Shown: positions 1 to 64,000, counted from the stretch's first letter. The stretch: DNA of 64,000 nucleotides from Bacteroidota bacterium (GCA_039795225.1 JBDKEN010000001.1:21610-85609), one strand, 5' to 3'. Made by a program: numbers and translations. The notes: generated from the letters alone by a model not told the origin.

Positions 1-1
1 T

Positions 2-1201
2 GTCATTGTCCGCGATATGTGGTTGACCGGCTTTGACGCCCCCTGCCTGAGCACGATGTACATCGACAAGCCCATGCAGGGTCACGGCCTCATGCAGGCC
101 ATTGCGCGTGTGAACCGCGTGTTCCGCGACAAGCCCGGCGGACTGGTGGTGGATTATCTGGGTCTGGCCGACAGCCTGAAGCGCGCGCTTGCAACGTACA
201 CGCAGAGTGGCGGTAAGGGGCAACCCAACATCAATGTCGAGGAAGCCGTGGCGGTGCTGCTGGAGAAGATGGACATTGCCCACGCCATGCTGCACGGCTT
301 TGACTGGTCGGCGTGGACGGGCGACAACATTCAGGCACGTCTCGCCCTGCTGGCCCCCGGATGTGAGCACATCCTGGAGCAGGAGAACGGTCGATCCCGC
401 TGGATGCAGGTCATCACCGACGCTTCCCGTGCCTTTGCGCTCTGTGCGGCGAGCAACGAAGCCAAGGCCATCCGCGATGATCTTGCGTTCTTTCAGGCTC
501 TGAGAGGGGGCATGCTTAAGGAACGGGAGAACCGCTCCGACGATCCGGACCGTCTTGATGCTGCGATACGTCAACTTGTTGACAAAGCGATTGTCGCCGA
601 TGACGGTATTATTGATGTCTTCACGGCTGCCGGTCTGCAGAAGCCCGACATCAGCATTTTGTCGGACCAGTTCCTTGCCGAAGTGCGCGGTCTGAAGTAC
701 AAGAACGTCGCTGCCGAACTGCTTGAAAAGCTGCTGACCGACGAGATCCGCACAACCTACAAGAACAACATCGTCGAGTCGAAGCGTCTTTCCGAGCTCC
801 TGCAGCAAACCCTCAACCGCTACCACAATCGCGCCATCGAAACGCAGGAAGTGATCGAAGAGCTCATCCGTCTGGCCCGCGACATGCGCGAGGCGATCAG
901 TCGCGGTGAGTCTCTCGGCCTGAACGACGACGAGCTTGCCTTCTACGATGCCCTTGCCGACAACTCCAGTGCCCGCATTGTGATGGGCGACGACAAGCTC
1001 AAGCTCATCGCCACCGAGCTCGTCAAGAAGGTTCGCTCCAGTGTCACCATCGACTGGAACCTCCGCGAGCAGGCCCGCGCCAACATCCGCGTCATCATCA
1101 AGCGCATACTCCGCGAGCACGGCTACCCACCCGACCTGCAGTCCGAAGCCGCCCAGCTCGTGCTGCAACAAGCCGAGCTGCTGTGCGAGGGGTGGGTGTA
1201 G
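2..1201 (+). CDS. hsdR: Type I restriction enzyme R subunit (HsdR), C-terminal ~400 aa only; the 5' part lies left of the window
   Basis: Frame is open to the window edge. [35 protein letters not shown] matches the conserved helicase motif V-VI block of HsdR proteins and is followed by a long helical C-terminal domain. TAG stop at 1199-1201. Confidence 0.85.
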
Positions 1202-1213
1202 GAGAGAGGGCAC

Positions 1214-1248
1214 TGGGTACAGGGTACAAGGTACTGGGTACTGGGTAC
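1214..1248 (+). repeat. Heptamer array A1, 5 units (strand = strand on which units read NNNKKAC)
   Basis: TGGGTAC AGGGTAC AAGGTAC TGGGTAC TGGGTAC. GTAC recurs at 1217, 1224, 1231, 1238 and 1245. Starts 12 nt after the hsdR stop. Confidence 0.9.
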
Positions 1249-1303
1249 ACACATTACGACACCCACACAAGACGTTCGCATCCCATCCCCATACTTCAGC
1301 CCT

Positions 1304-2820: not shown

Positions 2821-2846
2821 AACGCTCTCATCCATCCTCCTAATTT

Positions 2847-2937
2847 GTTCTTCGTAATTCGTACTTCGTAATTGGTACTTCGGAATTGGTCCTTCGTAAT
2901 TCGTACTTCGTAATTCGTACTTCGTAATTCGTCCCAG
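2847..2937 (-). repeat. Heptamer array A2, 13 units, 14-bp super-period
   Basis: The plus strand reads GTTCTTC GTAATTC GTACTTC GTAATTG GTACTTC GGAATTG GTCCTTC (GTAATTC GTACTTC)x2 GTAATTC GTCCCAG. Ends 8 nt from the stop of the minus-strand gene 2946..5216. Confidence 0.95.
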
Positions 2938-5226: not shown

Positions 5227-5530
5227 GATAACATTTGATATAGATAATGAGCTGCTTGTTGATTCTGGTCGCAGCACCAGCCAGACAACCGAGATGCTCC
5301 GAGTCAACCCCACGGTAGACGGAGTCGAGATTTCACAGACGTATGCTATAGCCAACAACGACGATTACATGGTCCACCTTGTCTTACTGACAAGTGTGCT
5401 TGGGCAACTTAGGACTCTTTTCCAAATGCCAAACGATTACTACCGAAAAGTATTACTCAAAATTCTTTCCGGGGTAGCGCCAGACGTCCGGCGTGTGCAG
5501 GATTCCGGATAATGCGGGGACAACCACCTC

Positions 5531-5579
5531 GTCATTCGTACTTCGTCATTCGTACTTCGTAATTGGTACTTCGTACCCT
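5531..5579 (-). repeat. Heptamer array A3, 7 units
   Basis: GTCATTC GTACTTC GTCATTC GTACTTC GTAATTG GTACTTC GTACCCT. Ends 28 nt before the kynA ATG. Confidence 0.95.
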
Positions 5580-8884: not shown

Positions 8885-8954
8885 CAATTACCAATTACCA
8901 ATTACCAATTACCAAGTACCAAGTACCAATTACGAATGACTAATGGCAAAGTAC
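8885..8954 (+). repeat. Heptamer array A4, 10 units
   Basis: CAATTAC x4, CAAGTAC x2, CAATTAC, GAATGAC, TAATGGC, AAAGTAC. Starts 5 nt after the pepP stop. Confidence 0.95.
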
Positions 8955-9022: not shown

Positions 9023-9141
9023 GTCCTTGGTAATTCGTACTTGGTAATTAGTAATTCGTACTTGGTAATTGGTAATTCGTACTTGTTAACTGGTAATTCG
9101 TACTTAGTAATTGGTAATTGGCAATTCGTACTTGGTAACTT
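9023..9141 (-). repeat. Heptamer array A5, 17 units, 21-bp super-period
   Basis: GTCCTTG then four triplets (GTAATTC GTACTTG GTAATTN-like) over 9030-9113, then GTAATTG GCAATTC GTACTTG GTAACTT. Ends 5 nt before the glmM ATG. Reverse complement of A4 unit types. Confidence 0.95.
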
Positions 9142-9143
9142 GC
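9136..9143 (+). promoter_or_regulatory. -10/-7-like box TAACTTGC, 3 nt before the glmM ATG; it is also the last unit of array A5
   Basis: GTAACTTGC CCC ATG. Confidence 0.3.
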
Positions 9144-9146
9144 CCC

Positions 9147-10490
9147 ATGTTCATCCGATCAATTTCTGGGCTACGAGCCACGCTTGGTGATGACCTGACG
9201 CCGGCGGTTGTTGCGAGATATGCGGAAGCCTTTAGTGCAATCCTCCCCAATGGGCCGATCGTTGTTGGTCGAGACGGGCGTCCGAGTGGACTGTGGATAG
9301 AGCAGGTTCTCATTGGTGCACTCCGTGCATGTGGCCGTACGGTGCGTCATCTTGGTATGATGCCAACGCCAACGGTGCAGCTACTGACGGAGCATTCCGA
9401 TGCTGTGGGTGGTATTTCCATTACTGCATCGCATAACCCGGCACCGTGGAATGGCTTGAAGTTTGTTGACGCTGGCGGCGTTTTTCTTGATGCTGACGGT
9501 AATGCGCAACTCTGGGAGGCGGCCGATGCAGCATCGGCGAACCGTTCATCCGAGCAGCAAGCAGGTATTCTTGAGCAGATTGATGATGCCGCGGCGCGAC
9601 ACGTTGATGTTGTGCTTGCACTTGAGGCAGTGTCCACAGCACCGAGTGCGAACGGTGAGACAGTAGTTGTTGATGCGGTCAACTGCTCTGGGTCATTCAT
9701 CGTGCCGCTCTTGCTCGAGCGGATGGGGTATCGGGTTGTTCGCTTGTTTGCCGATGGATCGGGGATCTTCCCACATACGCCTGAGCCCCTTGCAGAAAAT
9801 TTAACGGAGCTCGGTCGCGCCGTTGTTGCGCACGGCGCCATCATGGGCGTTGCCGTTGATCCGGATGCGGACCGGCTTGTGCTCTTTGATCGGCACGGGA
9901 CGCCCATTGGCGAAGAACGGACGGTTGCATTGGCTGCACGAGCTGTGCTCTTGCACGGACACCTGGGCTCGGTCGTAGTCAACTTCTCGACATCTCGAAT
10001 GGTTGACGATGTGGCGGCGGAATTCGGTCAACAGGTTGAACGTGCACCGGTGGGTGAAATCAATGTTGTTCGTCGGATGCAGGAGCTCTCGGCCGTGATT
10101 GGCGGCGAAGGTAGCGGTGGTGTCATCTACCCGGCATGCCATGCCGGACGTGACAGTCTGGTTGGACTTGCTTTAATCAGTGCAATGCTGCGTCGAAGCG
10201 GCACAACTCTGGATGACGTCTGTGCTGCGATCCCCTCCTACACGATGATCAAGACGAAGTTTGATCTCGCCTCGCGGGAGCAGATGACCAGCATAACGCA
10301 GCGGATCGTTGCACTGCACGGAGAACATATCGCCTCGACGGCTGATGGCATCTATCTGCGCTGGCCGCAGAGCTGGCTGCATGTGCGTGCTTCGAACACC
10401 GAGCCGATCATGCGCGTGATTGCCGAGGCACCAACGCCCGAAGAGGCCACATCGCTTGTGGAATCGATCACGGCGCTGATCCATGGCTAG
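9147..10490 (+). CDS. glmM: Phosphoglucosamine mutase / phosphohexomutase
   Basis: ATG at 9147 (MFIRSISGLRATLG, a Bacteroidetes-type GlmM N-terminus). Phosphoserine loop ITASHNPAPWNGLKF, metal loop GVAVDPDADR, sugar loop GGEGSGG. The upstream part of the listed ORF is heptamer-array read-through. Confidence 0.7.
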   Translation: MFIRSISGLRATLGDDLTPAVVARYAEAFSAILPNGPIVVGRDGRPSGLWIEQVLIGALRACGRTVRHLGMMPTPTVQLLTEHSDAVGGISITASHNPAPWNGLKFVDAGGVFLDADGNAQLWEAADAASANRSSEQQAGILEQIDDAAARHVDVVLALEAVSTAPSANGETVVVDAVNCSGSFIVPLLLERMGYRVVRLFADGSGIFPHTPEPLAENLTELGRAVVAHGAIMGVAVDPDADRLVLFDRHGTPIGEERTVALAARAVLLHGHLGSVVVNFSTSRMVDDVAAEFGQQVERAPVGEINVVRRMQELSAVIGGEGSGGVIYPACHAGRDSLVGLALISAMLRRSGTTLDDVCAAIPSYTMIKTKFDLASREQMTSITQRIVALHGEHIASTADGIYLRWPQSWLHVRASNTEPIMRVIAEAPTPEEATSLVESITALIHG

Positions 10491-13400
10491 CCCCTTTACC
10501 ACAAACTCTCTTGGACATGCACGTCATGTCCTCTCGCTTTGTCTCCATGCCGCAACTGGGAAGGGGGCTTCGCGAACAACGATCGAGGAGTTTACGAGTG
10601 TTGAAGGAACATTCCGTGTCTTGAAGGACGCCGAGACGCAGCGGACGCTTGCCGTCGTGGACGCGATTCCACCATCAGAGAGCCCCTTCGATGATGTCCC
10701 CCGCGACAAGCTGCGCTCCATTGCCACGCGTGTCCAGGCCCCGTATGTTATTCTGACGAATCTCCGCCGCGTTGTTACCTACCGCACGGAAGGTGTTCTC
10801 AAGCGTCTACCCGACGAACAGCATACGGTGGGATGGCACAATGCGTCGGATGTGCGATCTGTTGAGGATGCTGACTCCTCGGGCATGCAGGTGGGGATTA
10901 TCGCAGCGCTGCGTCAAGCTATTCAATGGCTTGACATTGACGCATCACTGCGTCCAGAACAACGCGTCATTGATGCATCAGCATTCTTCTCGGAACGTGT
11001 ACTTTCGATGTTTGATGATCTGGTCTCATGCTGTGAGAGCGGTGTGCAGCAGCGTGACGCCACGCTGCGCCTCGGAACGAGTATCCTGGCCTATGTGCTC
11101 ATGCATGTGCGTGATCGAAGCAACCTCGATCGGTTGTCACTCCCCTACGGCCTTGGCAGTGCTCGACTGATGACGGATCTAGTTGGTGCGTACTTCCGTC
11201 AAGCACGTCGGCTCGGACACACGATGCTTCCGGAATCGGTCGAAGATGTGCAGATCCTGCCGCACCGCGAGGGTGTGTTCCGCATGACGCTATCGGATCT
11301 GATCAACTTCTTGCATCGGTTTGATCCTGAACGTCTGAGTGATAATGACCTGCATCGCGCCGTTGATGCTGTCCTGCAGCGATGCTCGCGCATCGCACGC
11401 GCATCGGTGCCGACCATCGATGCGTTGGACCTTGCCTTGCGGATGGTTGCGCGCACGCGCGAACTGCGTGATGTCGCCGATCACGATCGTCATCGACTAC
11501 TGGAGATCGGGCAGACGCAGGGCCTTGCCAGCGTCCGCCACCTGCTGATGTCGGGTGGTGTTCCCTGTGAGGCACGAGTCTATGCACGCACGGCCGAGGA
11601 CGAGCGCGCCATCGTGCTTCGGTCATCAGGCCGCATTGGCTTTGATGCCGACGTGCAGATTCTTCGCGAAACGCGCGCCGTTCGAAGTCCATGGGATATG
11701 GTCGTCGCAACAACTACAGATGTACGGGAACGCCACCGTCTGCGCCTGCTGCTTGAGCGTCTCCCGCTCGACCCTGATGGTGTTGTCGTGCTCTTCCTAC
11801 CGATCTCGGCGCTGCATGACGAGCGCTATGCACTGGTGCGACAAACACTCATGGCACGCTTTAGTATCGAGTGGCTCGTTGTCAGCGATGCCGAAGCTCT
11901 GGCAGAGCCAGACACGGGAGTGTGCTTCATTGTCGCACGGGTGGCATCAGAAGATGACGTTGATCATCCCGCCCGATGCGTCTACCTACGTCGTCCCATT
12001 GCCGCATTCTTCCCTTCATCACGTGCCTCGCGTGATCTTGAGCAGGATCGTCTGCGAGCGCTGGACACCTTCGTGAAGTATCTCGATGCCTCTCGCCATG
12101 GGAAGCTGAACGACGAAGCCGTTGTGCGGATGGTACCGCAGGACCATCTGCGTCGCGACCCTGTGTGGGAGGACTTTCTCGTGCCGCCCGATGTGCTGAG
12201 CTCGATCCTTACCAAAACCCTCCCCCACATTCGGCCGCTACGCTCCATCGCTGACGTGTCAGGGGGCATGCGCACGGGCGCCTTTGATGTATTTGCTCCG
12301 GATACACAGACGATTGCCTCGGACGATCTCGAAAACACCTTCTGGCAGCGGATTGCTGATGATGGAAGCGTCATCGACAACTACGTTCTCACGACGAGTG
12401 ATGACATCGACTCCATGAGTGGTCTGCCTCGCACGGATCGGCGACTATTGCTGATCCCCAAAGATCGTTCGCAGATCTCTGGTACGAATGTGCTCACACG
12501 CATTGAGAAGGCAGAACGTGAAGGCGTACACCTGCGCGCATCGATGCGGCATGCCACAGAGTGGTGGCACCTACAGCCCCCTCAGCCGCCGCATCTCGTT
12601 ATTCCGAAACAACAGGATCGACGCTGGGTTGTTGCCGTGAACAGCCTACGTGCATACGTCAGCGATGCATTCGTCTGCATCACGCTGCGCCAGCCGGCCG
12701 ATGCCGAGCGTATCGGGTTGTGGATGAATTCCACCATTGGCGTATTCCTCAGCGAGTTGCTCCGTCAGGATCTGCATGTGCAGAACATCACGGTGCGTGA
12801 TGCACAAGAATTCCCGATTGCCGATGATGCTCTGTTGTCAAAGCTTGATCCGGCGCATTTTACGGGGCTCGCACGACGTCGCGTGAGCACCCTCGATGAT
12901 GAGTTTGGTGCCGTCTCCTATGATAGCATCAGGCCAGAGACCATTCTGCGCGATCGTCGCAAACTTGATGCGGCGATCATGACCGATCTGCTGGGCCTAA
13001 CTGAAGAAGAACAGCGCTGGGTGTACCGATTCGCCTATGCGTGGTGGTCACGGACGTCGAACGTTCGGCACATCGCCAACGCCATTGTGTATGATCTGGA
13101 ACATCGGCAGAAGGTAAAGCCACTACGTGCCTGGTATTGGCCACGCATTAATCAGCTCCCACTTGGTGCCCGTCGCGAGATTATTCTCGATTCCCCTGCA
13201 GAGTCAACGGAGGTGACGCCAACAATGTTTGGATGGCAGGTGCGGATCTCGCACACCCATGATGACCTTGTGCTTGAGGCTAGCACTGGGGAAGAGGCGG
13301 AGATCATTGGCCTCTTTGTCCGCCTTGGTGCCGTATCGATGGAGATCCCAATCGACACTATTCTCATTGCGGGTCTGCTTCCGCAACTGCGAGACTTTGT

Positions 13401-13503
13401 CATGGCGGTTGAGGCGTTGCTCGAGCAGAGCCTGTCGGCATTCCCTGACGATATGCGTCGATCAATCCGACACGCCGTCGCATCCACCTTGTGCATGCGA
13501 TAA
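10483..13503 (+). CDS. 1,006-aa protein with type IIG restriction-modification-like architecture (nuclease-like N-terminus, gamma-class N6-MTase-like core, TaqI_C-like specificity domain) but degenerate catalytic motifs
   Basis: Uninterrupted ORF whose ATG overlaps the glmM stop by 8 nt (ATGGCTAG). Motif-position matches are listed in the findings. Where FD(V/I)V(I/V)GNPPY is expected the sequence reads PWDMVVATTTD, and where LDPxCGSGxF is expected it reads LLEIGQTQGLA. Confidence 0.55.
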   Translation: MASPFTTNSLGHARHVLSLCLHAATGKGASRTTIEEFTSVEGTFRVLKDAETQRTLAVVDAIPPSESPFDDVPRDKLRSIATRVQAPYVILTNLRRVVTYRTEGVLKRLPDEQHTVGWHNASDVRSVEDADSSGMQVGIIAALRQAIQWLDIDASLRPEQRVIDASAFFSERVLSMFDDLVSCCESGVQQRDATLRLGTSILAYVLMHVRDRSNLDRLSLPYGLGSARLMTDLVGAYFRQARRLGHTMLPESVEDVQILPHREGVFRMTLSDLINFLHRFDPERLSDNDLHRAVDAVLQRCSRIARASVPTIDALDLALRMVARTRELRDVADHDRHRLLEIGQTQGLASVRHLLMSGGVPCEARVYARTAEDERAIVLRSSGRIGFDADVQILRETRAVRSPWDMVVATTTDVRERHRLRLLLERLPLDPDGVVVLFLPISALHDERYALVRQTLMARFSIEWLVVSDAEALAEPDTGVCFIVARVASEDDVDHPARCVYLRRPIAAFFPSSRASRDLEQDRLRALDTFVKYLDASRHGKLNDEAVVRMVPQDHLRRDPVWEDFLVPPDVLSSILTKTLPHIRPLRSIADVSGGMRTGAFDVFAPDTQTIASDDLENTFWQRIADDGSVIDNYVLTTSDDIDSMSGLPRTDRRLLLIPKDRSQISGTNVLTRIEKAEREGVHLRASMRHATEWWHLQPPQPPHLVIPKQQDRRWVVAVNSLRAYVSDAFVCITLRQPADAERIGLWMNSTIGVFLSELLRQDLHVQNITVRDAQEFPIADDALLSKLDPAHFTGLARRRVSTLDDEFGAVSYDSIRPETILRDRRKLDAAIMTDLLGLTEEEQRWVYRFAYAWWSRTSNVRHIANAIVYDLEHRQKVKPLRAWYWPRINQLPLGARREIILDSPAESTEVTPTMFGWQVRISHTHDDLVLEASTGEEAEIIGLFVRLGAVSMEIPIDTILIAGLLPQLRDFVMAVEALLEQSLSAFPDDMRRSIRHAVASTLCMR

Positions 13504-13569: not shown

Positions 13570-14586
13570 ATGCTTTCGGTTCGCGATGTTATTGCCCTGC
13601 GATTTGTTCCACGTCTACCCAACGATGAGCTTCGGCGACTCGCCACGGAGTGCACGTCCTTAGATGATGCTCTGGTGCGTCTTGGGCATCATCAGCTGGA
13701 TCTGGTTGAGCTCGCAGAGCGACAGCTCCAACGTTGCCGCGAACTTGACGTTTCGATTCTTCCCTGGACGGATGAGCGCTATCCTCCACGCCTGCGTGAT
13801 GCCATATCGCCCCCTGCCGTAATCTTCGTTCGCGGAATTCTTCCTGCACCTTCTCTTCCCAGCATCGGCGTTGTCGGGACGCGATCTTGCACCATGCATT
13901 ATGGGAAACCTGTGACGGAATCGCTCGTGGAAACGTGGGTGGCACGAAGAGCTGTAATCATCAGCGGTCTTGCCCACGGCATTGATACGATTGCCCACCA
14001 GACAACTGTCCAACGCCATGGTAGTACCATCGCTGTGATTGCCAGTGGAATCGATCGAATAACACCAATCGTTGCACAGCAACTGGCCGACCGAATTGTT
14101 GCTGCTGGTGGCTGCATTCTCAGTGAGCACCCGTGTGGTGTTGCTGCCCTGCCGCCGGCATTTCCAGCACGCAATCGCATCATTGCCGGTCTGAGCGACG
14201 CCGTTGTGGTTGTCGAGAGCAAGCACCGAGGGGGCGCACTGATTACGGCCGAGTTTGCGCGCCAAAAGCAGCGACCAGTCTACGCCGTGCCCGGGCCGAT
14301 TACGTCGGTACGCAGTCAGGGGTGTCATGCGCTTATTGCTTCTCATTCTGCCAGAGTGCTTACCTGCGCCGATGATGTTGTGGAGGTGCCGAAGCTGGCT
14401 GCAGAATTGACGCTATCGCATGAAGCCGTGCTCGGGTTTGAAAGTGGAACGCCGCAGCACCTCGATGATCTAGCCATGGCGTGGTCATGCTCGGCCTCCG
14501 ATGCCCTTCGTCGCGTATTGGACCTCGAGCTGGAGGGTCGCATCACCCGTCTGCCAGGAAACCGATTTCTTGCACGCATCGCTTGA
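13570..14586 (+). CDS. dprA: DNA processing protein DprA (Smf)
   Basis: GLAHGIDTIAHQ, FPARNRIIAGLSDAVVVVES and GGALITAEFARQKQRPVYAVPG are typical DprA Rossmann-fold blocks. Confidence 0.85.
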   Translation: MLSVRDVIALRFVPRLPNDELRRLATECTSLDDALVRLGHHQLDLVELAERQLQRCRELDVSILPWTDERYPPRLRDAISPPAVIFVRGILPAPSLPSIGVVGTRSCTMHYGKPVTESLVETWVARRAVIISGLAHGIDTIAHQTTVQRHGSTIAVIASGIDRITPIVAQQLADRIVAAGGCILSEHPCGVAALPPAFPARNRIIAGLSDAVVVVESKHRGGALITAEFARQKQRPVYAVPGPITSVRSQGCHALIASHSARVLTCADDVVEVPKLAAELTLSHEAVLGFESGTPQHLDDLAMAWSCSASDALRRVLDLELEGRITRLPGNRFLARIA

Positions 14587-19770: not shown

Positions 19771-20438
19771 TCCGCCCCCTGATAGCTCTCGTTCTCGTCT
19801 TCACAGCCCTCCTCGAACCGGTCCTTGCTGCCACAGATGCCAAAGCCCTGCTGATGTCCATCCGCAAACGCATGGAGTCGAGTGGAAAGTATACAGCCGA
19901 GCTGCGTCTCAAGGTCGACATCCCGTTCATGAAGGCCCCCGAGGCAAAGGCGTCGCTAACATTCACGCCTCCAAACTCGACGAAGATCACCTCCAAGGGC
20001 TTTGCAATGATTCCAAAGCAAAGCACGGAACTCAGCGCTCTGTCTTTGCTTTCGGGCGAGTTCGCTGCCATCGATATGGGCACTGAATCATATAAGGGGC
20101 TCACCCTGCGCAAGATCAAGATCATCCCGGCCGATGAAACGGGTAACATCGTGGTCGCTACGCTGTTCGTTGACGAAGCAGCCCTGCTCACACGCAAGGT
20201 CACAGCAACGGCGAAGTCCGGCGGTACAGTGGCTGCCGAACTGGTCTATGATAACGCCAAAGCCGCTGCGTACTGCCTTCCGTCGTACATGAAGATCACC
20301 ATGGAAGTGCCCAACTTCGAGATCCCACGCACCATCACCGGCGATTTTAACGAGTCGGCCCAACCCAAAAAACCGGCAGATCCCAATGGCAAAACAAAGG
20401 CCAGTGTGGAGATCTGGTATGAGAAGTACCGGTTCTAG
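19767..20438 (+). CDS. Secreted LolA-like / lipoprotein-carrier-like hypothetical protein
   Basis: GTG at 19767 overlaps the permease stop (GTGA). VIRPLIALVLVFTALLEPVLAA is a signal peptide. The beta-rich body is only vaguely LolA-like. The listed start at 19668 would overlap the permease by about 100 nt. Confidence 0.45.
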   Translation: MIRPLIALVLVFTALLEPVLAATDAKALLMSIRKRMESSGKYTAELRLKVDIPFMKAPEAKASLTFTPPNSTKITSKGFAMIPKQSTELSALSLLSGEFAAIDMGTESYKGLTLRKIKIIPADETGNIVVATLFVDEAALLTRKVTATAKSGGTVAAELVYDNAKAAAYCLPSYMKITMEVPNFEIPRTITGDFNESAQPKKPADPNGKTKASVEIWYEKYRF

Positions 20439-20439
20439 G

Positions 20440-20495
20440 TTTGGGGTTTGGGGTTTGGGGTTTGGGGTTTGGGGTTTGGGGTGTGAGGTTTGGGG
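20440..20495 (+). repeat. Heptamer array A6: (TTTGGGG)6 TGTGAGG TTTGGGG, a G-quadruplex-type tract
   Basis: Read directly. Starts 1 nt after the TAG of 19767..20438 and ends 19 nt from the xth stop (convergent gene ends). The last sense codons upstream include GAAGTAC. Confidence 0.95.
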
Positions 20496-20514
20496 TGTAT
20501 AGCCAGCCGTACAA

Positions 20515-44843: not shown

Positions 44844-44855
44844 AGACTGGGTATC

Positions 44856-44946
44856 CAACGACCAATTACAAATGACCAATGACAAAGTACAATTGGCCAA
44901 TGACGAATGACCAATGACGAATGACCAGTGACGAATGACCAATGAC
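44856..44946 (+). repeat. Heptamer array A7, 13 units
   Basis: CAACGAC CAATTAC AAATGAC CAATGAC AAAGTAC AATTGGC CAATGAC GAATGAC CAATGAC GAATGAC CAGTGAC GAATGAC CAATGAC. Starts 12 nt after the HMA gene stop. Confidence 0.95.
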
Positions 44947-44977
44947 GAGTGGAGTCTCGCATCGGCGGGAACGAAGA

Positions 44978-47878: not shown

Positions 47879-47955
47879 TGGGTACTGGGTACGAAGTACA
47901 AATGACGAAGTACGAAGTACCAATGACGAAGTACGAAGTACCAATGACGAAGTAC
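47879..47955 (+). repeat. Heptamer array A8, 11 units, 21-bp super-period
   Basis: TGGGTAC TGGGTAC GAAGTAC AAATGAC (GAAGTAC GAAGTAC CAATGAC)x2 GAAGTAC. Starts 3 nt after the gcvP stop. Confidence 0.95.
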
Positions 47956-48068: not shown

Positions 48069-48159
48069 GTACCTGGTCATAAGTAATTCGTCCTTGGTAA
48101 TTCGTCCTTGGTAATTCGTCCTTGGTAACTCGTCCTTGGTGATCCGTCATCGGTAATTC
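48069..48159 (-). repeat. Heptamer array A9, 13 units, 14-bp super-period
   Basis: GTACCTG GTCATAA (GTAATTC GTCCTTG)x3 GTAACTC GTCCTTG GTGATCC GTCATCG GTAATTC. Ends 16 nt before the hrpB ATG. Confidence 0.95.
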
Positions 48160-59679: not shown

Positions 59680-62600
59680 TTAGTTGTTGTGAGTGATCTC
59701 AACCCACTTCTGCAGCGATGAGATGTAGACGAACATGATCAGACCGTTTGTATTGAGCGTCCGACTTGCGATGAACAGCTCAAGCTGATTATCAGTAGCT
59801 GAACGGCCATCATTGCTGTAGAACTTGAGCTGCTTACCAGAGCCGTTGAACACAATGAGTAAGCGTCCGTCCGATCCTCCATCAAAGCCCGTCACGTCCG
59901 TCTGCGCCGTTGCATTGATGAATCGAATCAGACCTGCCTCAGGAATGATGAGGTCATTCAGCTCATTCAACACGTTTTGAACTAAGGCGACATCGATAAC
60001 GGTGCCTTCCCGCAGGTACACGCCGGTAGGCAGTTCACCCTTTTTCGTATTTGTCCACTTCTGCGTTGTGTCGTTCCAGGTCAATACGTCCTGATTCGCC
60101 AGCGTCATTGTCGAATCAATAGGCTTTGTCTGAATCTTCTGAACGACAGGGTTCGGATATGTTCCTTTAAGGTCTCCTCCGGCGGAACCGGTTGGAGAAC
60201 TTGATGACGGGGCTACCGGCTCCCATGAGCTGGTTGTGCTACTCCAGGTCAGCACATTACCCGAAGCAGGCGCAGCTGTCGACACTGTGCGTCCTTGGAT
60301 CTTATTGACAGTCGGATTTGGATACGTGCCCGAAAGATCACCTCCAGCCGATCCACCTGGGGTCGTCCCCGATATCGTAACGTTCGATACATTCGTCAGA
60401 CGTCCATCAGAATCCACCGTGAGCTGAGGAACTTGTGTCGTTGTTCCATACGTACCACCGACGACCGATGTTGAAGCAAGCTCTGATGACCCCACGGCGT
60501 CGGCTGTGATCTGCAGGTTCATCGTATTGATGTTGCCACTGACTGTTACGTCTGTTCCGGCAGCAGTTGCCGGCACGATGGTGAGGTTTGTAGCCGAGCT
60601 CAACCGTCCCTTCGCATCGACGGAAAACTGCGGTACTGCGCTCGTGGTACCATACGTGCCGGAACTGACACCGGTTGTTGTGAGGCTCGGATTCGGATAG
60701 GTTCCCGTAAGATCGCCACCGGCTGGGCCTGATGGAGCAGCACCAGAGATCGTGACGTTGCTTGCACTGGTGATACGTCCATCGGCGTCTACAGTAAACT
60801 GTGCAACCTGCGTGGACGTACCGTAGCTACCAGCCGAGACCGACGTTGATTGCAGTTCGGTCGAGCCAACCACATCCGATCCCAGTTGAAGATTCATCGT
60901 GTTGATGTTACCACTGACGGTTACATCGGTTCCCGCTGCTGTAGCTGGAACAATGGTGACATTTGTTGCACTCGTGAGTCGCCCCTTGGCGTCAACAGAA
61001 ACCTGTGCAACCTGGTGATCACTTCCATACGTAGCAGCCGTCACTCCCGTCAACGTGAGAGTTGGATTTGGATACGTACCGGTAAGATCACCACCGGCAG
61101 CGCCCCCAGGGATCGTGCCAGAGATCGTCACGTTACTGACATTCGTGAGGCGACCATCCGCATCGACTGTGAGCTGCGGGACTTGCGTGGTGGAACCGTA
61201 CATGCCACTCACGACTGCTGTTGATGCCAATTCTGCCGAGCCGACGACATCGGTGCCCAACTGCAAGTTCATACTGTTGATGTTCCCGCTTACGGAGACA
61301 TCGGTTCCAGCGGCAGTAACCGGCACGATGGTGACATTCGTCGCTGAGCTTACCCGTCCCTTCGCATCGACGGATATCTGCGGCACAACGCTCGTTGTTC
61401 CATACGTGCCGGCACTGACGCCGGTCGTGGTCAGACTCGGGTTGGGATAGGTTCCCGTGAGATCTCCCCCTGCGGGACCGGAGGGGGCAATACCAGAAAT
61501 GCTGACGTTGCTCGCATTGGTGATACGACCATCGGTATCAACCGTAAACTGTGCTACCTGTGTAGCCGTACCGTAGGTGCCAGCAGATACTGTCGTCGAG
61601 GCAAGCTCAGGTGCACCGACAACGCTGCTGCCTAATTGCAGATTCATTGTGTTGACATTCCCTGTGACGGTAACATCGGTTCCCGCTGCCGTCGAGGGAA
61701 CGATCGTGACGTTGGTTGCATTTGTTAAACGGCCCTTCGCATCAACAGTGATCTGCGCAACCTGGTGATCGCTACCGTACGTTGCCGCTGCAACGCCTGT
61801 TGTCGTCAACGTCGGATTTGGATATGTGCCGGTGAGATCACCACCCGCTGCGCCGCCCGGTGTTGTGCCAGAGATCGTCACGTTCGTGACGTTAGTCAAC
61901 CGACCATCAGCATCGACGCTCAGCTGTGCGACCTGCGTTGTGGTACCATAGGTACCGCTGGTAACAGCCGTAGGTGCCAGCTCTGTTGGACCGACAACAT
62001 CGGCACCAAGCTGCAGGTTCATCGTATTGATATTACCGGATACCGTAACATCTGTGCCAGCAGCCGTCGTGGGCACAATTGTCAAATTGCTCGCTGCGGT
62101 AAGACGCCCCTTAGCGTCGACGGTAAACTGCGGTACTGCGCTTGTTGAACCGTACGATCCGGCACTCACTCCTGTTGTAATCAATGTTGGATTTGGATAC
62201 GTGCCGGTGAGATCACCGCCTGCTGCGCCACCCGGAGTCGTACCGGTGATCGTCACATTCGTAACGTTCGTGAGTCGACCATCAGCATCGACCGTAAGCT
62301 GGGGAATTTGGGTGGCTGATCCATACGTGCCGAGGGTAACGCCGGATGATGATAGTTCGGATGCACCGACCGTGTTCGCACCAATCTGTAGATTCATGGT
62401 GTTGATGTTCCCGGTCACACTAACATCCGAAGAGCCACTCGTTGCCGGTACAATTGTCAGATTTGATGCCGCAAGAACGCGTCCCTTAGCATCAACGGTA
62501 AACTGCGGTACTGCCGAGGTTGTACCGTATTGATCTGCGACAACCCCTGTTGCAATGAGTGATGGACTTGGGTAGGTGCCCGTAAGATCACCACCGGCAG

Positions 62601-64000
62601 CTCCTCCCGGAGTTGTACCCGATATCGTCACATTCTGTGCTGAAGTTAGACGTCCATCAGCATCGACGGTGAACTGCCCTACCTGCGTGGCTGTACCATA
62701 GGTTCCCGAGCTTACCGCAGTCGGCGCGAGCTCTGTAGGACCGACCACTGCTGTGGCGAGCTGAATGTTCATTGTATTGATGTTTCCCGTCACGGTAGCG
62801 TCTGAGCCTGCAGCTGTGACAGGCACGATTGTCACATTGGTGGCATTGGAGAGTCGACCCTTTGCATCAACAGTAAACTGTCCAACCTGACTATTGCTGC
62901 CATATGTGCCCGATGCAATGCCCGTTGTCGTGAGCGTCGGATTTGGATACGTTCCAGTGAGGTCACCCCCGGCCGACCCTCCCGGCGTGGTGCCGGCTAT
63001 GGTAATGTTCTGTGCTGTGGTGATGCGTCCGTCCTGATCAATCGTGATCTGCGGGACCTGCGTCGTCGTGCCGTAGGTGGCTGCTGATACACCGGTCGAG
63101 GCAAGCTCCTGCGAGCCCACGACATTGGGTCCGATCTGCAGATTCATCGTATTGATCGTGCCGGAAATCGTCACATCAGATGTTAACGAGCTTACGGGTT
63201 GGATCATGACATCGGCTGCCGACAACACCCGCCCCTTCGCATCAATCGTCACCTGTGCAACATGACTCGATGAACCATAGGTGCCGGACATCACGCCGGT
63301 GGTGGTGAGCGACGGATTCGGATAGGTACCAGTAAGATCTCCACCAGCTGCACCTCCGGGAGTAGTTCCTGTAATAGTTGTTGATGTAAGTGCGGTAACT
63401 CGACCATCGTTGTCGATAGTCACGATCGGTACAATCGAGGATGATCCAACGGGGCCAATCGAAGTGGCATGAAGATCAGCCAACTCTGTCGAGCCGACGC
63501 GGCCAGTCTTGATCTGTAGATCCATTGAGTCGAGGTGGCCGGTTACAGTTACGTCAGAAGCGGTAACTGTGCCCGGATGCTCCAGCTTGGACGCATCGAT
63601 TACCTGCATGGATGATGAATTATTGATCGCATTGATAATCGAGGGTCCTGCTGCTGCGATGTTGATCGTCGGATTTGGATATGTTCCAGTCAGATCTCCA
63701 CCGGCTGGCCCTCCGGGAGTCGTTCCAGAGATTGTCACATTCGCCGCCGCGGTAAGTCGTCCATCGGCATCAACAGTAATCTGCGGTACCTGTGTGGTTG
63801 TTCCGTAGGAACCTGCAGCAACCGACGTTGAGGCGAGCTCGTTGGCACTCACCACTGCGGTTCCGAGCTGGAGATTCATGGTGTTGATGTTTCCGGTAAC
63901 GTTGACGTCCGTGCCGGTGGTCACTCCGGGAACAATTGTCACATTGGTCGCAGATGTGAGACGTCCCTTTGCGTCAACGGTGAACTGGCCGACCTGACTC
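59680..64000 (-). CDS. Giant tandem-repeat fibre/adhesin-like protein, C-terminal ~1,440 aa; N-terminus lies right of the window
   Basis: The listed GTG at 63942 is an internal Val. The frame stays open to 64000 and reads SQVGQFTVDAKGRLTSATN, continuing the repeat. Ten 125-aa repeats plus a 209-aa non-repeat C-terminus. TAA stop at 59680-59682. Confidence 0.85.
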   Translation of the reverse strand, partial: SQVGQFTVDAKGRLTSATNVTIVPGVTTGTDVNVTGNINTMNLQLGTAVVSANELASTSVAAGSYGTTTQVPQITVDADGRLTAAANVTISGTTPGGPAGGDLTGTYPNPTINIAAAGPSIINAINNSSSMQVIDASKLEHPGTVTASDVTVTGHLDSMDLQIKTGRVGSTELADLHATSIGPVGSSSIVPIVTIDNDGRVTALTSTTITGTTPGGAAGGDLTGTYPNPSLTTTGVMSGTYGSSSHVAQVTIDAKGRVLSAADVMIQPVSSLTSDVTISGTINTMNLQIGPNVVGSQELASTGVSAATYGTTTQVPQITIDQDGRITTAQNITIAGTTPGGSAGGDLTGTYPNPTLTTTGIASGTYGSNSQVGQFTVDAKGRLSNATNVTIVPVTAAGSDATVTGNINTMNIQLATAVVGPTELAPTAVSSGTYGTATQVGQFTVDADGRLTSAQNVTISGTTPGGAAGGDLTGTYPSPSLIATGVVADQYGTTSAVPQFTVDAKGRVLAASNLTIVPATSGSSDVSVTGNINTMNLQIGANTVGASELSSSGVTLGTYGSATQIPQLTVDADGRLTNVTNVTITGTTPGGAAGGDLTGTYPNPTLITTGVSAGSYGSTSAVPQFTVDAKGRLTAASNLTIVPTTAAGTDVTVSGNINTMNLQLGADVVGPTELAPTAVTSGTYGTTTQVAQLSVDADGRLTNVTNVTISGTTPGGAAGGDLTGTYPNPTLTTTGVAAATYGSDHQVAQITVDAKGRLTNATNVTIVPSTAAGTDVTVTGNVNTMNLQLGSSVVGAPELASTTVSAGTYGTATQVAQFTVDTDGRITNASNVSISGIAPSGPAGGDLTGTYPNPSLTTTGVSAGTYGTTSVVPQISVDAKGRVSSATNVTIVPVTAAGTDVSVSGNINSMNLQLGTDVVGSAELASTAVVSGMYGSTTQVPQLTVDADGRLTNVSNVTISGTIPGGAAGGDLTGTYPNPTLTLTGVTAATYGSDHQVAQVSVDAKGRLTSATNVTIVPATAAGTDVTVSGNINTMNLQLGSDVVGSTELQSTSVSAGSYGTSTQVAQFTVDADGRITSASNVTISGAAPSGPAGGDLTGTYPNPSLTTTGVSSGTYGTTSAVPQFSVDAKGRLSSATNLTIVPATAAGTDVTVSGNINTMNLQITADAVGSSELASTSVVGGTYGTTTQVPQLTVDSDGRLTNVSNVTISGTTPGGSAGGDLSGTYPNPTVNKIQGRTVSTAAPASGNVLTWSSTTSSWEPVAPSSSSPTGSAGGDLKGTYPNPVVQKIQTKPIDSTMTLANQDVLTWNDTTQKWTNTKKGELPTGVYLREGTVIDVALVQNVLNELNDLIIPEAGLIRFINATAQTDVTGFDGGSDGRLLIVFNGSGKQLKFYSNDGRSATDNQLELFIASRTLNTNGLIMFVYISSLQKWVEITHNN
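60310..64000 (-). repeat. 375-bp (125-aa) in-frame tandem repeats inside the giant gene, about 10 copies in the window, with a 750-bp higher-order repeat
   Basis: TTCATCGT of the NTMNLQ block recurs at 60518 and 60893 (375 bp apart). CCTGGTGATC recurs at 61011 and 61761 (750 bp apart). The protein shows 10 G(N/T)(I/V)N(T/S)MNLQ-type blocks. Confidence 0.9.

Follow-up and report, generated by a model that had tools for sequence, protein, structure and literature searches.

A type IIG restriction enzyme-like protein with eroded catalytic motifs is a conserved neighbour of glmM in a family of Kapabacteria

The analysed DNA, hereafter referred to as the window, is a stretch of 64,000 nucleotides from a Bacteroidota bacterium (GCA_039795225.1, JBDKEN010000001.1:21610-85609), the assembly of which (G000) comprises 1.83 Mb and is 70% complete. 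We studied an open reading frame (ORF) of this window, designated X, which encodes a protein of 1,006 amino acids (P0001) and belongs to a row of genes located on the plus strand: a comF-like phosphoribosyltransferase gene, pepP, glmM, X, dprA, the type 2 isopentenyl diphosphate isomerase gene (fni), a prenyl diphosphate synthase gene and murD. The first-pass annotation had described X as an intact ORF of 1,006 codons, starting within the end of glmM and directly followed by dprA, and all three statements were confirmed. The frame (10483..13503, +) is open across its entire length, the start codon ATG (10483) lies within the end of glmM, the TAG of which occupies 10488-10490 (the junction reads ATGGCTAG) and a gap of 66 bp separates X from dprA. 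The upstream gene scored 440.4 bits with the NCBIfam Arch_GlmM equivalog model (cut-off 439), and the downstream gene reached 215 bits with the NCBIfam dprA model (cut-off 191). The base composition over the X gene was flat. Read from the gene overlap alone, glmM and X are probably co-expressed, being co-translated from one transcript.

The distribution of X was evaluated at the level of the order, the phylum and the family. In the order sample, X was present at full length and as a single copy in 18/18 genomes of its own family, while full-length X was found in 0/82 genomes of other families, which gave partial matches only, to unrelated type IIG proteins of ~1,141 amino acids. The phylum sample contained X in 9/9 genomes of the family and in 0/291 genomes outside it (E<=1e-20). 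Denser sampling of the family recovered the gene, free of internal stops, in 39 of 41 genomes representing all eight genera, and the two genomes lacking it were fragmented or incomplete assemblies. The glmM gene was found immediately upstream of X in 14/14 loci, with an overlap of 8 or 1 bp or a spacing of 1 bp between them. Within one family of Kapabacteria, X counts among the single-copy core genes, and it always follows glmM. The glmM-X-dprA gene order proposed in the first-pass annotation held on the glmM side, whereas dprA was directly adjacent in 11/14 loci only; in one further locus (L007) it followed after an insert of ~1.1 kb, and in two it was not found. In the maximum-likelihood tree, the X clade was monophyletic (100/100), was joined to the active enzymes by a long stem and contained the genera as clades. 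Since the X tree follows the genera, X has descended vertically, and its divergence rate was close to that of DprA. The pairwise ratios of non-synonymous to synonymous substitutions (dN/dS), obtained from codon alignments, were 0.07-0.09 overall and 0.05-0.22 across the five domains of the protein, each of which is subject to strong purifying selection. That all catalytic signatures are lost, as described below, would fit a pseudogene in decay, but the low dN/dS and the frame of ~1,000 codons, open in 39/41 genomes and 8 genera, leave this explanation with a negligible probability.

Searches against protein families were performed for X with the Pfam and NCBIfam collections, and zero families, including HSDR_N, N6_Mtase and Eco57I, were matched at E<=10. 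Sequence and profile searches of PDB chains yielded chance matches or none. Unlike X, its nearest active relatives do reach Pfam HSDR_N_2, Eco57I and N6_Mtase, and they carry M_Eco57I_C or TaqI_C as well. PADLOC produced one match (MTase_II, residues 537-759, E 5.6e-8). A large protein collection contained 34 full-length homologues with 39-81% identity to X, nearly all of ~1,000 amino acids, all named 'hypothetical protein' and all originating from Kapabacteria or Ignavibacteria-type metagenome-assembled genomes. PF22837.2 (M_Eco57I_C) was precomputed for all 34 of them, and hmmscan with PF22837.1 detected 2/19 members, at E 0.043 or weaker. Because the family and sequence searches gave nothing, structure and profile-profile methods were needed to establish the homology of X. 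The AlphaFold2 model, based on an alignment of 19 homologues, had a predicted local distance difference test (pLDDT) value of 82.3 and a predicted template modelling (pTM) score of 0.74. The best PDB match of this model in Foldseek was the type IIG enzyme BpuSI (3s1s), with E 1.5e-18 over 959 columns, followed by CamA, M.BseCI and PacII, which are gamma-class adenine methyltransferases with recognition domains, and then by DrdV and BrxX/PglX. An exhaustive profile search with the X family collected 878 relatives. The tier beyond about a dozen clusters of X orthologues consisted of proteins of ~1,140 amino acids, matched over residues 445-998 only, in which E...D...ExK, LDPxCGAGTFL and NPPY are invariant. 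When the X family was compared by hhalign with 17 active-looking type IIG enzymes, the probability was 100% (E 3.6e-60, 951 columns), with X residues 21-1007 aligned to template positions 16-1126. On the strength of this 951-column profile-profile alignment, X is homologous from end to end to a single-chain type IIG enzyme. The likeness to BpuSI/MmeI-type folds, which the first-pass annotation had anticipated, was thus found at the structural level; at the level of profiles, the thresholds of Pfam Eco57I and N6_Mtase were not reached, and it was the profile-profile comparison with type IIG enzymes that agreed.

Type IIG enzymes (BpuSI, Eco57I/MmeI-type and DrdV) and X share the same full-length domain order, from the nuclease-like N-terminus to the C-terminal domain. 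The differences concern ~30-80 residues of methyltransferase inserts, which are deleted in X, and the catalytic motifs of both the nuclease and the methyltransferase, which X has lost. Moreover, X is inherited vertically as a core gene of a housekeeping operon, and its recognition domain is conserved, whereas type IIG enzymes are sporadic and mobile and their recognition domains are variable. X descends from type IIG enzymes, yet it fails their defining catalytic features and is functionally not a member of this group.

The loss of motifs was surveyed by hhalign and by an independent MAFFT alignment, which was in agreement, and 18 members of the X family, including the most divergent clusters, were inspected. 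The motif correspondences of the first-pass annotation were borne out by both alignments against the type IIG enzymes, and the sequence blocks it had cited were all present in X where it had placed them. In the N-terminal domain, the I-E-x-K strand of active enzymes aligned with V-D-A-I in X, and the PD aspartate fell in a gap; the ExK lysine was absent in 18/18 members, and the Asp was not conserved among the divergent ones. Motif X of the active enzymes (GQYFTxxDVVDLI) corresponded to SVPTIDALDLAL. Motif I (VLDPxCGAGTFL) corresponded to LLEIGQTQGLAS, with DPxCGAG changed to E-I-G-Q-T-Q-G; X has Thr, and divergent members have Ser, in place of the first canonical GxG glycine, and GxG was found at motif I in 0/18. 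The motif II acid was not conserved among the orthologues, the DFF segment of motif III had no counterpart in X, and at motif IV, NPPY was replaced by T-T-T-D. The pattern [NDS]PP[YFWH] was present in 0/18 members, the tetrapeptide drifting among the orthologues (TTTD, STDV, FTHT, LTHD and others). The possibility that orthologues had retained NPPY or GxGxG, which the first-pass annotation had raised, did not hold for any of the 18 members. The Rossmann domain of the model, the strands of which extend from 337-342 through 480-487, had gamma-class N6A methyltransferases as its Foldseek neighbours, and both its catalytic and cofactor motifs are eroded. Two clusters (P0042 and P0043) consist of short forms of ~915 amino acids that lack Rossmann strands 2-4 and part of the helical domain; their loci, L081 (G012:C1:2353000-2360500) and L083 (G087:C100:29000-36000), have open frames of 922 and 931 amino acids. 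The domain best kept in these short forms, from genomes G012 and G087, is the recognition domain. Since the motifs are lost in all members inspected and a segment of the Rossmann domain can be deleted, X is very likely devoid of a working methyltransferase or nuclease.

The conservation of X was determined across 32 orthologues from 8 genera, in which 78 positions were invariant or near-invariant. The linker and the recognition domain contained 46 of these positions, and the invariant share amounted to 13.5% of the recognition-domain columns, compared with 3.4-6.8% for the remaining domains. The recognition domain was likewise the best conserved of the five in the most divergent genera. This region, which includes the blocks WWHL (residues 694-697) and LWMNSTIGVFL (residues 746-756), was aligned by profile to enzymes matching PF22837 or TaqI_C. 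Its invariant residues also include R653/R654, K709, R714/W715 and W747-S750. The ratio of methyltransferase-domain identity to the whole-protein mean was 1.32 in the active relatives, where this domain is the most conserved one, versus 1.04 in X. In an alignment of 19 sequences, the invariant residues comprised S67, F69, D70, R74, D75 and R78 in SPFDDVPRDKLR, V309, P310, T311, D313, A314, D316, L317 and A318 in the motif X equivalent, E341, G343, T345 and G347 in the motif I equivalent, and G595, R597, T598, G599 and A600 at the opening of the recognition domain. The C-terminal domain, modelled as strands (897-956) followed by helices (959-1004), was the least conserved domain of X.

Because conservation peaks in the recognition domain, we read X as a recognition-only derivative. 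The explanation that we favour, with moderate confidence, is that X derives from a single-chain type IIG enzyme and, inherited vertically and no longer catalytic, persists as a protein that recognises DNA but does not cut it. The first-pass annotation had likewise seen in X an exapted, catalytically degenerate type IIG derivative, and the fold match, motif loss, selection and synteny support it. The ancestor would have comprised five parts: nuclease, helical connector, gamma-class N6-adenine methyltransferase, recognition domain and C-terminal domain. X would still fold like this parent enzyme and would have been retained for a recognition domain that binds a fixed sequence of duplex DNA without cutting or methylating it, and the dead methyltransferase and nuclease lobes could act as a clamp or scaffold. 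Ancestry and conservation suggest that the recognition domain most likely reads a fixed target, a sequence of duplex DNA. Candidate downstream roles include nucleoid or chromosome handling, regulation, and DNA discrimination during recombination. Several observations weigh against this interpretation. The arrangement of the domains relative to each other in the X model is unlike that of BpuSI (template modelling score 0.39-0.44, root-mean-square deviation 15 A). The equivalents of motif X and motif I (VPTIDAxDLAL and LExGxTxG) are invariant in the 19 sequences and recognisable in the short forms; since they stay invariant, a ligand pocket may survive in X, with a role beyond DNA binding. The binding of DNA is itself deduced from ancestry and conservation only, and the constant association with glmM might indicate a role apart from DNA.

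A target of X was sought by k-mer statistics over the genome G000. The sequence 5'-ARGGGGC-3' was present in 1,961 copies (one per 930 bp), outnumbered its single-substitution neighbours by a factor of 8-10, and was the only outstanding 7- or 8-mer; the extended form ARGGGGCT reached 12-14 times the median neighbour, with ~1 copy per 2 kb. The window contains 81 ARGGGGC sites, e.g., 10490-10496 (minus strand, at the glmM/X junction), 10562-10568, 12261-12267 and 12576-12582. The sites had unique contexts, occupied every reading frame of either strand and were found in intergenic DNA in proportionate numbers. Their spacing was slightly more even than random (coefficient of variation of the gaps 0.78-0.94), and replichore polarity was absent (701 versus 631 on the 1.26-Mb contig). 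This absence led us to reject a role like that of Chi or of the FtsK-orienting polar sequences (KOPS). A codon or peptide artefact was rejected in view of the distribution over frames, strands and intergenic DNA, and terminator hairpins were rejected as a source because a nearby inverted partner was found at 74/1,961 sites only.

The enrichment of ARGGGGCT in other genomes was expressed relative to the reversed pattern, an imperfect control that in G000 is itself ~4-fold under the expectation from composition; the neighbour statistic and the contrast between genomes are independent of this control. Within the family, ARGGGGCT was enriched 7-31 fold in genera g1, g2, g4, g172 and g174 (3.6 in one genome, G398), 1-4 fold in g173 and g175, and not at all in g3. 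Taken together, the basal lineages g3, g173 and g175 had values of 0.4-3.8 fold with X intact. The ~370 genomes outside the family revealed no comparable excess, most values being near or below 1 and a few rising to ~4 fold, with lower counts. The density in the crown of the family was ~1 copy per 1.2-4.5 kb, and the two genomes with short X (genus g2) were still 13-fold enriched. In three of four g3 genomes (G049, G065 and G391), ARGGCGGC was ~3-fold enriched in place of ARGGGGCT, a signal too weak to interpret. A drive exerted by repair through Vsr and a C5 methylase was rejected, as both are absent from G001 (genus g1, 31-fold enriched) and sporadic elsewhere. One genus has a Vsr homologue with an in-frame TAA adjoining a C5 DNA methyltransferase (G099:C9:149376-152609), which has the appearance of a very-short-patch repair pair in decay. 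In density and distribution, ARGGGGC(T) resembles cyanobacterial highly iterated palindrome 1 (HIP1) and uptake sequences, but it is non-palindromic. The DNA uptake sequences and uptake signal sequences (DUS/USS) are likewise hyper-abundant, evenly spread, non-polar short motifs. Their enrichment amounts to 100-fold or more. That of ARGGGGC, at ~10-fold, is far under this level. Secretin (PF00263) was found in 0/5 complete relatives and ComEC in 5/5; classical pilus-mediated uptake via ARGGGGCT is unlikely, since there is no secretin, though ComEC is present.

ARGGGGCT is a concrete candidate binding site for X, which could be a cytoplasmic reader of this 'self' signature, engaged in recombination or chromosome handling, possibly with DprA; no N-terminal signal peptide was evident by eye in the X sequence. 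If this were true, a destroyer of foreign DNA would have turned into a recogniser of a 'self' sequence signature. The hyper-abundance of the motif in G000 in all frames, both orientations and intergenic DNA speaks for such a reader, as do the confinement of strong enrichment to the X-bearing family, the asymmetric form with one R degeneracy, similar to a type IIG site, and the retention of the motif in the genus with shortened X, together with its best-kept recognition domain. In the rooted X tree, however, genomes rich in the motif group together as a single crown clade, and the genera poor in it branch off basally. This order makes X older than the expansion of ARGGGGCT, and their co-occurrence reflects one clade and a single evolutionary event. 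Genera g3, g173 and g175 combine an intact X with little enrichment, zero columns of X are fixed differently in the crown clade, and another crown-specific factor may drive the motif. We consider it improbable that X reads ARGGGGCT.

A role without DNA is about as improbable, namely that of a scaffold or regulator tied to GlmM and the synthesis of cell-envelope precursors, for which the fold would have been reused. The glmM stop and the X start overlap or abut at every locus examined, murD and isoprenoid genes are located downstream of X, and glmM operons in other bacteria carry regulators. Nevertheless, constraint in X is strongest on the DNA-recognition domain rather than on a new surface, and the order of genes in a compact genome says little about function. 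Besides, dprA is nearly as constant a neighbour. We attribute an even lower probability to X being a defence sensor or decoy, which would bind Ocr-like anti-restriction DNA mimics or mark foreign DNA for another effector. This idea draws on Foldseek neighbours that include BrxX/PglX and a type I methylase complexed with Ocr (8q56, 7eew), as well as on the inactive Dam-like domains that serve as recognition modules in DndH (PMC10853773). The locus, on the other hand, has no defence neighbours, the PADLOC match on the recognition domain is weak, and X is single-copy, vertically inherited and embedded in a housekeeping operon, unlike defence genes. Just as remote is the view that X has kept an enzymatic activity (methyltransferase, nuclease or other) by means of non-canonical residues. 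It could account for the invariance of E341, G343, T345 and G347 and of the motif X equivalent, and the seven-stranded Rossmann fold is predicted to be intact in the P0001 model. It conflicts with the lack of conservation of the motif IV residues and the motif II acid, the deletion of the motif III segment, a sublineage devoid of strands 2-4 and the absence of the ExK lysine everywhere.

Restriction-modification genes are usually mobile, fast-turnover defence genes. Some of their parts have been domesticated with catalytic activity kept, such as MutH, a relative of Sau3AI, and the orphan methylases Dam and CcrM. With these, X shares fixation in a lineage and, as proposed here, the reuse of sequence recognition for functions of the chromosome; it differs in having lost both chemistries. 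PglX is catalytically active and works with other Brx proteins. PglX/BrxX of the BREX system (PDB 8q56, 9ewz) resembles X in being one long chain that carries a gamma-class methyltransferase together with a recognition domain (Foldseek E 5e-9 to 3e-8), but X is not flanked by brx genes such as brxA, brxB, brxC and brxL or by pglZ, lacks NPPY and has a nuclease-like N-terminus. Among described proteins, DndH of DndFGH comes closest as a precedent: its Dam-like domain, in which the S-adenosylmethionine loop and [SDN]PP[FYW] are eroded, is inactive and is kept together with recognition domains as a recognition module (PMC10853773). DndH and X have in common the gamma-group adenine-methyltransferase fold with eroded motifs, kept as a presumed recognition module (PMC10853773). 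DndH, in contrast, is a multi-domain defence protein of a mobile defence locus, with an active nuclease and a HerA/FtsK ATPase, whereas X stands alone, is a core gene in a housekeeping context, and its nuclease is dead too. No publication on the X family or on ARGGGGC(T) was found in the literature library that was searched. X is a domesticated restriction-modification component, here stripped of all chemistry. Its significance is that a complete single-chain enzyme without chemistry has been kept through the whole history of the family under selection of housekeeping strength. X may thus illustrate, in nature and in clear form, how a restriction enzyme is pared down to recognition alone.

Table 1. 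Coordinates in the window of X, its domains and motif equivalents, and the adjacent genes.
Feature	Position	Strand	Basis
X, whole ORF, dead type IIG-like protein	10483..13503	+	Intact ORF, homologues, dN/dS
N-terminal PD-(D/E)xK-like (HSDR_N-like) domain without catalytic residues, residues 1-125	10483..10857	+	hhalign on HSDR_N_2-bearing N-termini
VVDAI, residues 58-62, at the I-E-x-K strand position, Lys to Ile	10654..10668	+	hhalign and MAFFT
SPFDDVPRDKLR, family-specific invariant helix past the dead ExK strand	10681..10716	+	19-sequence alignment
Helical connector, residues 126-330, with the motif X equivalent at its end	10858..11472	+	Aligned to the helical domain of active enzymes
Motif X equivalent VPTIDALDLAL, residues 309-319	11407-11439	+	Counterpart of GQYFTxxDVVDLI in the alignment to active enzymes
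Methyltransferase-like Rossmann domain, residues 331-520, seven predicted strands	11473..12042	+	AlphaFold2 model, Foldseek
Motif I equivalent LLEIGQTQGLASV, residues 339-351, at the VLDPxCGAGTFLV position	11497..11535	+	hhalign, MAFFT
Motif IV equivalent PWDMVVATTTD, residues 403-413, at the FDAIVGNPPY position	11689..11721	+	hhalign, MAFFT
Linker and TaqI_C / M_Eco57I_C-type target-recognition domain, residues 521-860	12043..13062	+	PADLOC MTase_II, PF22837, profile alignment
GGMRTGAFDVF, residues 594-604, G-x-(K/R)-T-G-A-N hallmark opening the recognition domain	12262..12294	+	Aligns with VRxGxKTGANEFF
C-terminal beta-sheet/helix domain, residues 861-1006 and stop	13063..13503	+	hhalign to template position 1126; common to active relatives
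glmM, phosphoglucosamine mutase	9111..10490	+	Pfam PGM_PMM I-IV; stop codon within X start
dprA	13570..14586	+	Pfam DNA_processg_A and DprA_WH; 66 bp 3' of X

The genome G000 has a sole Pfam N6_Mtase match (G000:C5:12458-13393, E 7e-111), located ~8 kb upstream of the window start; this gene is presumably the hsdM of a type I system, the putative hsdR of which is at window positions 1-1300. As it is the single match, X has no active paralogue in the 70%-complete assembly. The basal g3 orthologues of X at loci L078 (G049:C6:620500-628500) and L082 (G065:C32:20000-27500) have a stop-to-stop frame of 1,189 amino acids and, given this length, may carry an N-terminal extension.

Intergenic arrays of (TTSGTMM)n with a 7-bp period were observed in both orientations at window positions 2841-2932, 5529-5576, 8885-8954 and 9027-9138, and further ones at 44855-44948, 47889-47955 and 48083-48159, as well as at contig ends such as G000:C2:4-94. 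The pattern search in G000 returned 133 four-unit matches. Within the genus, 5/12 genomes had the arrays, which also turned up sporadically in two further families; since they are located at contig ends, they probably break assemblies. A link between X and the arrays beside glmM was rejected, as they occurred in 5/19 X-bearing genomes of the order sample and also, here and there, in families that lack X. G000 has a further family of heptamer arrays, of the form (GGTACTG)n, and the 12-mer GGTACTGGGTAC was found in 134 copies. The window also contains a (GGTTTGG)n / TTTGGGG tract of 8.4 copies at 20438-20496 and, at 61791-62635, a 375-bp tandem repeat (2.3 copies, 74% match), which is probably a repeated domain within a coding sequence.

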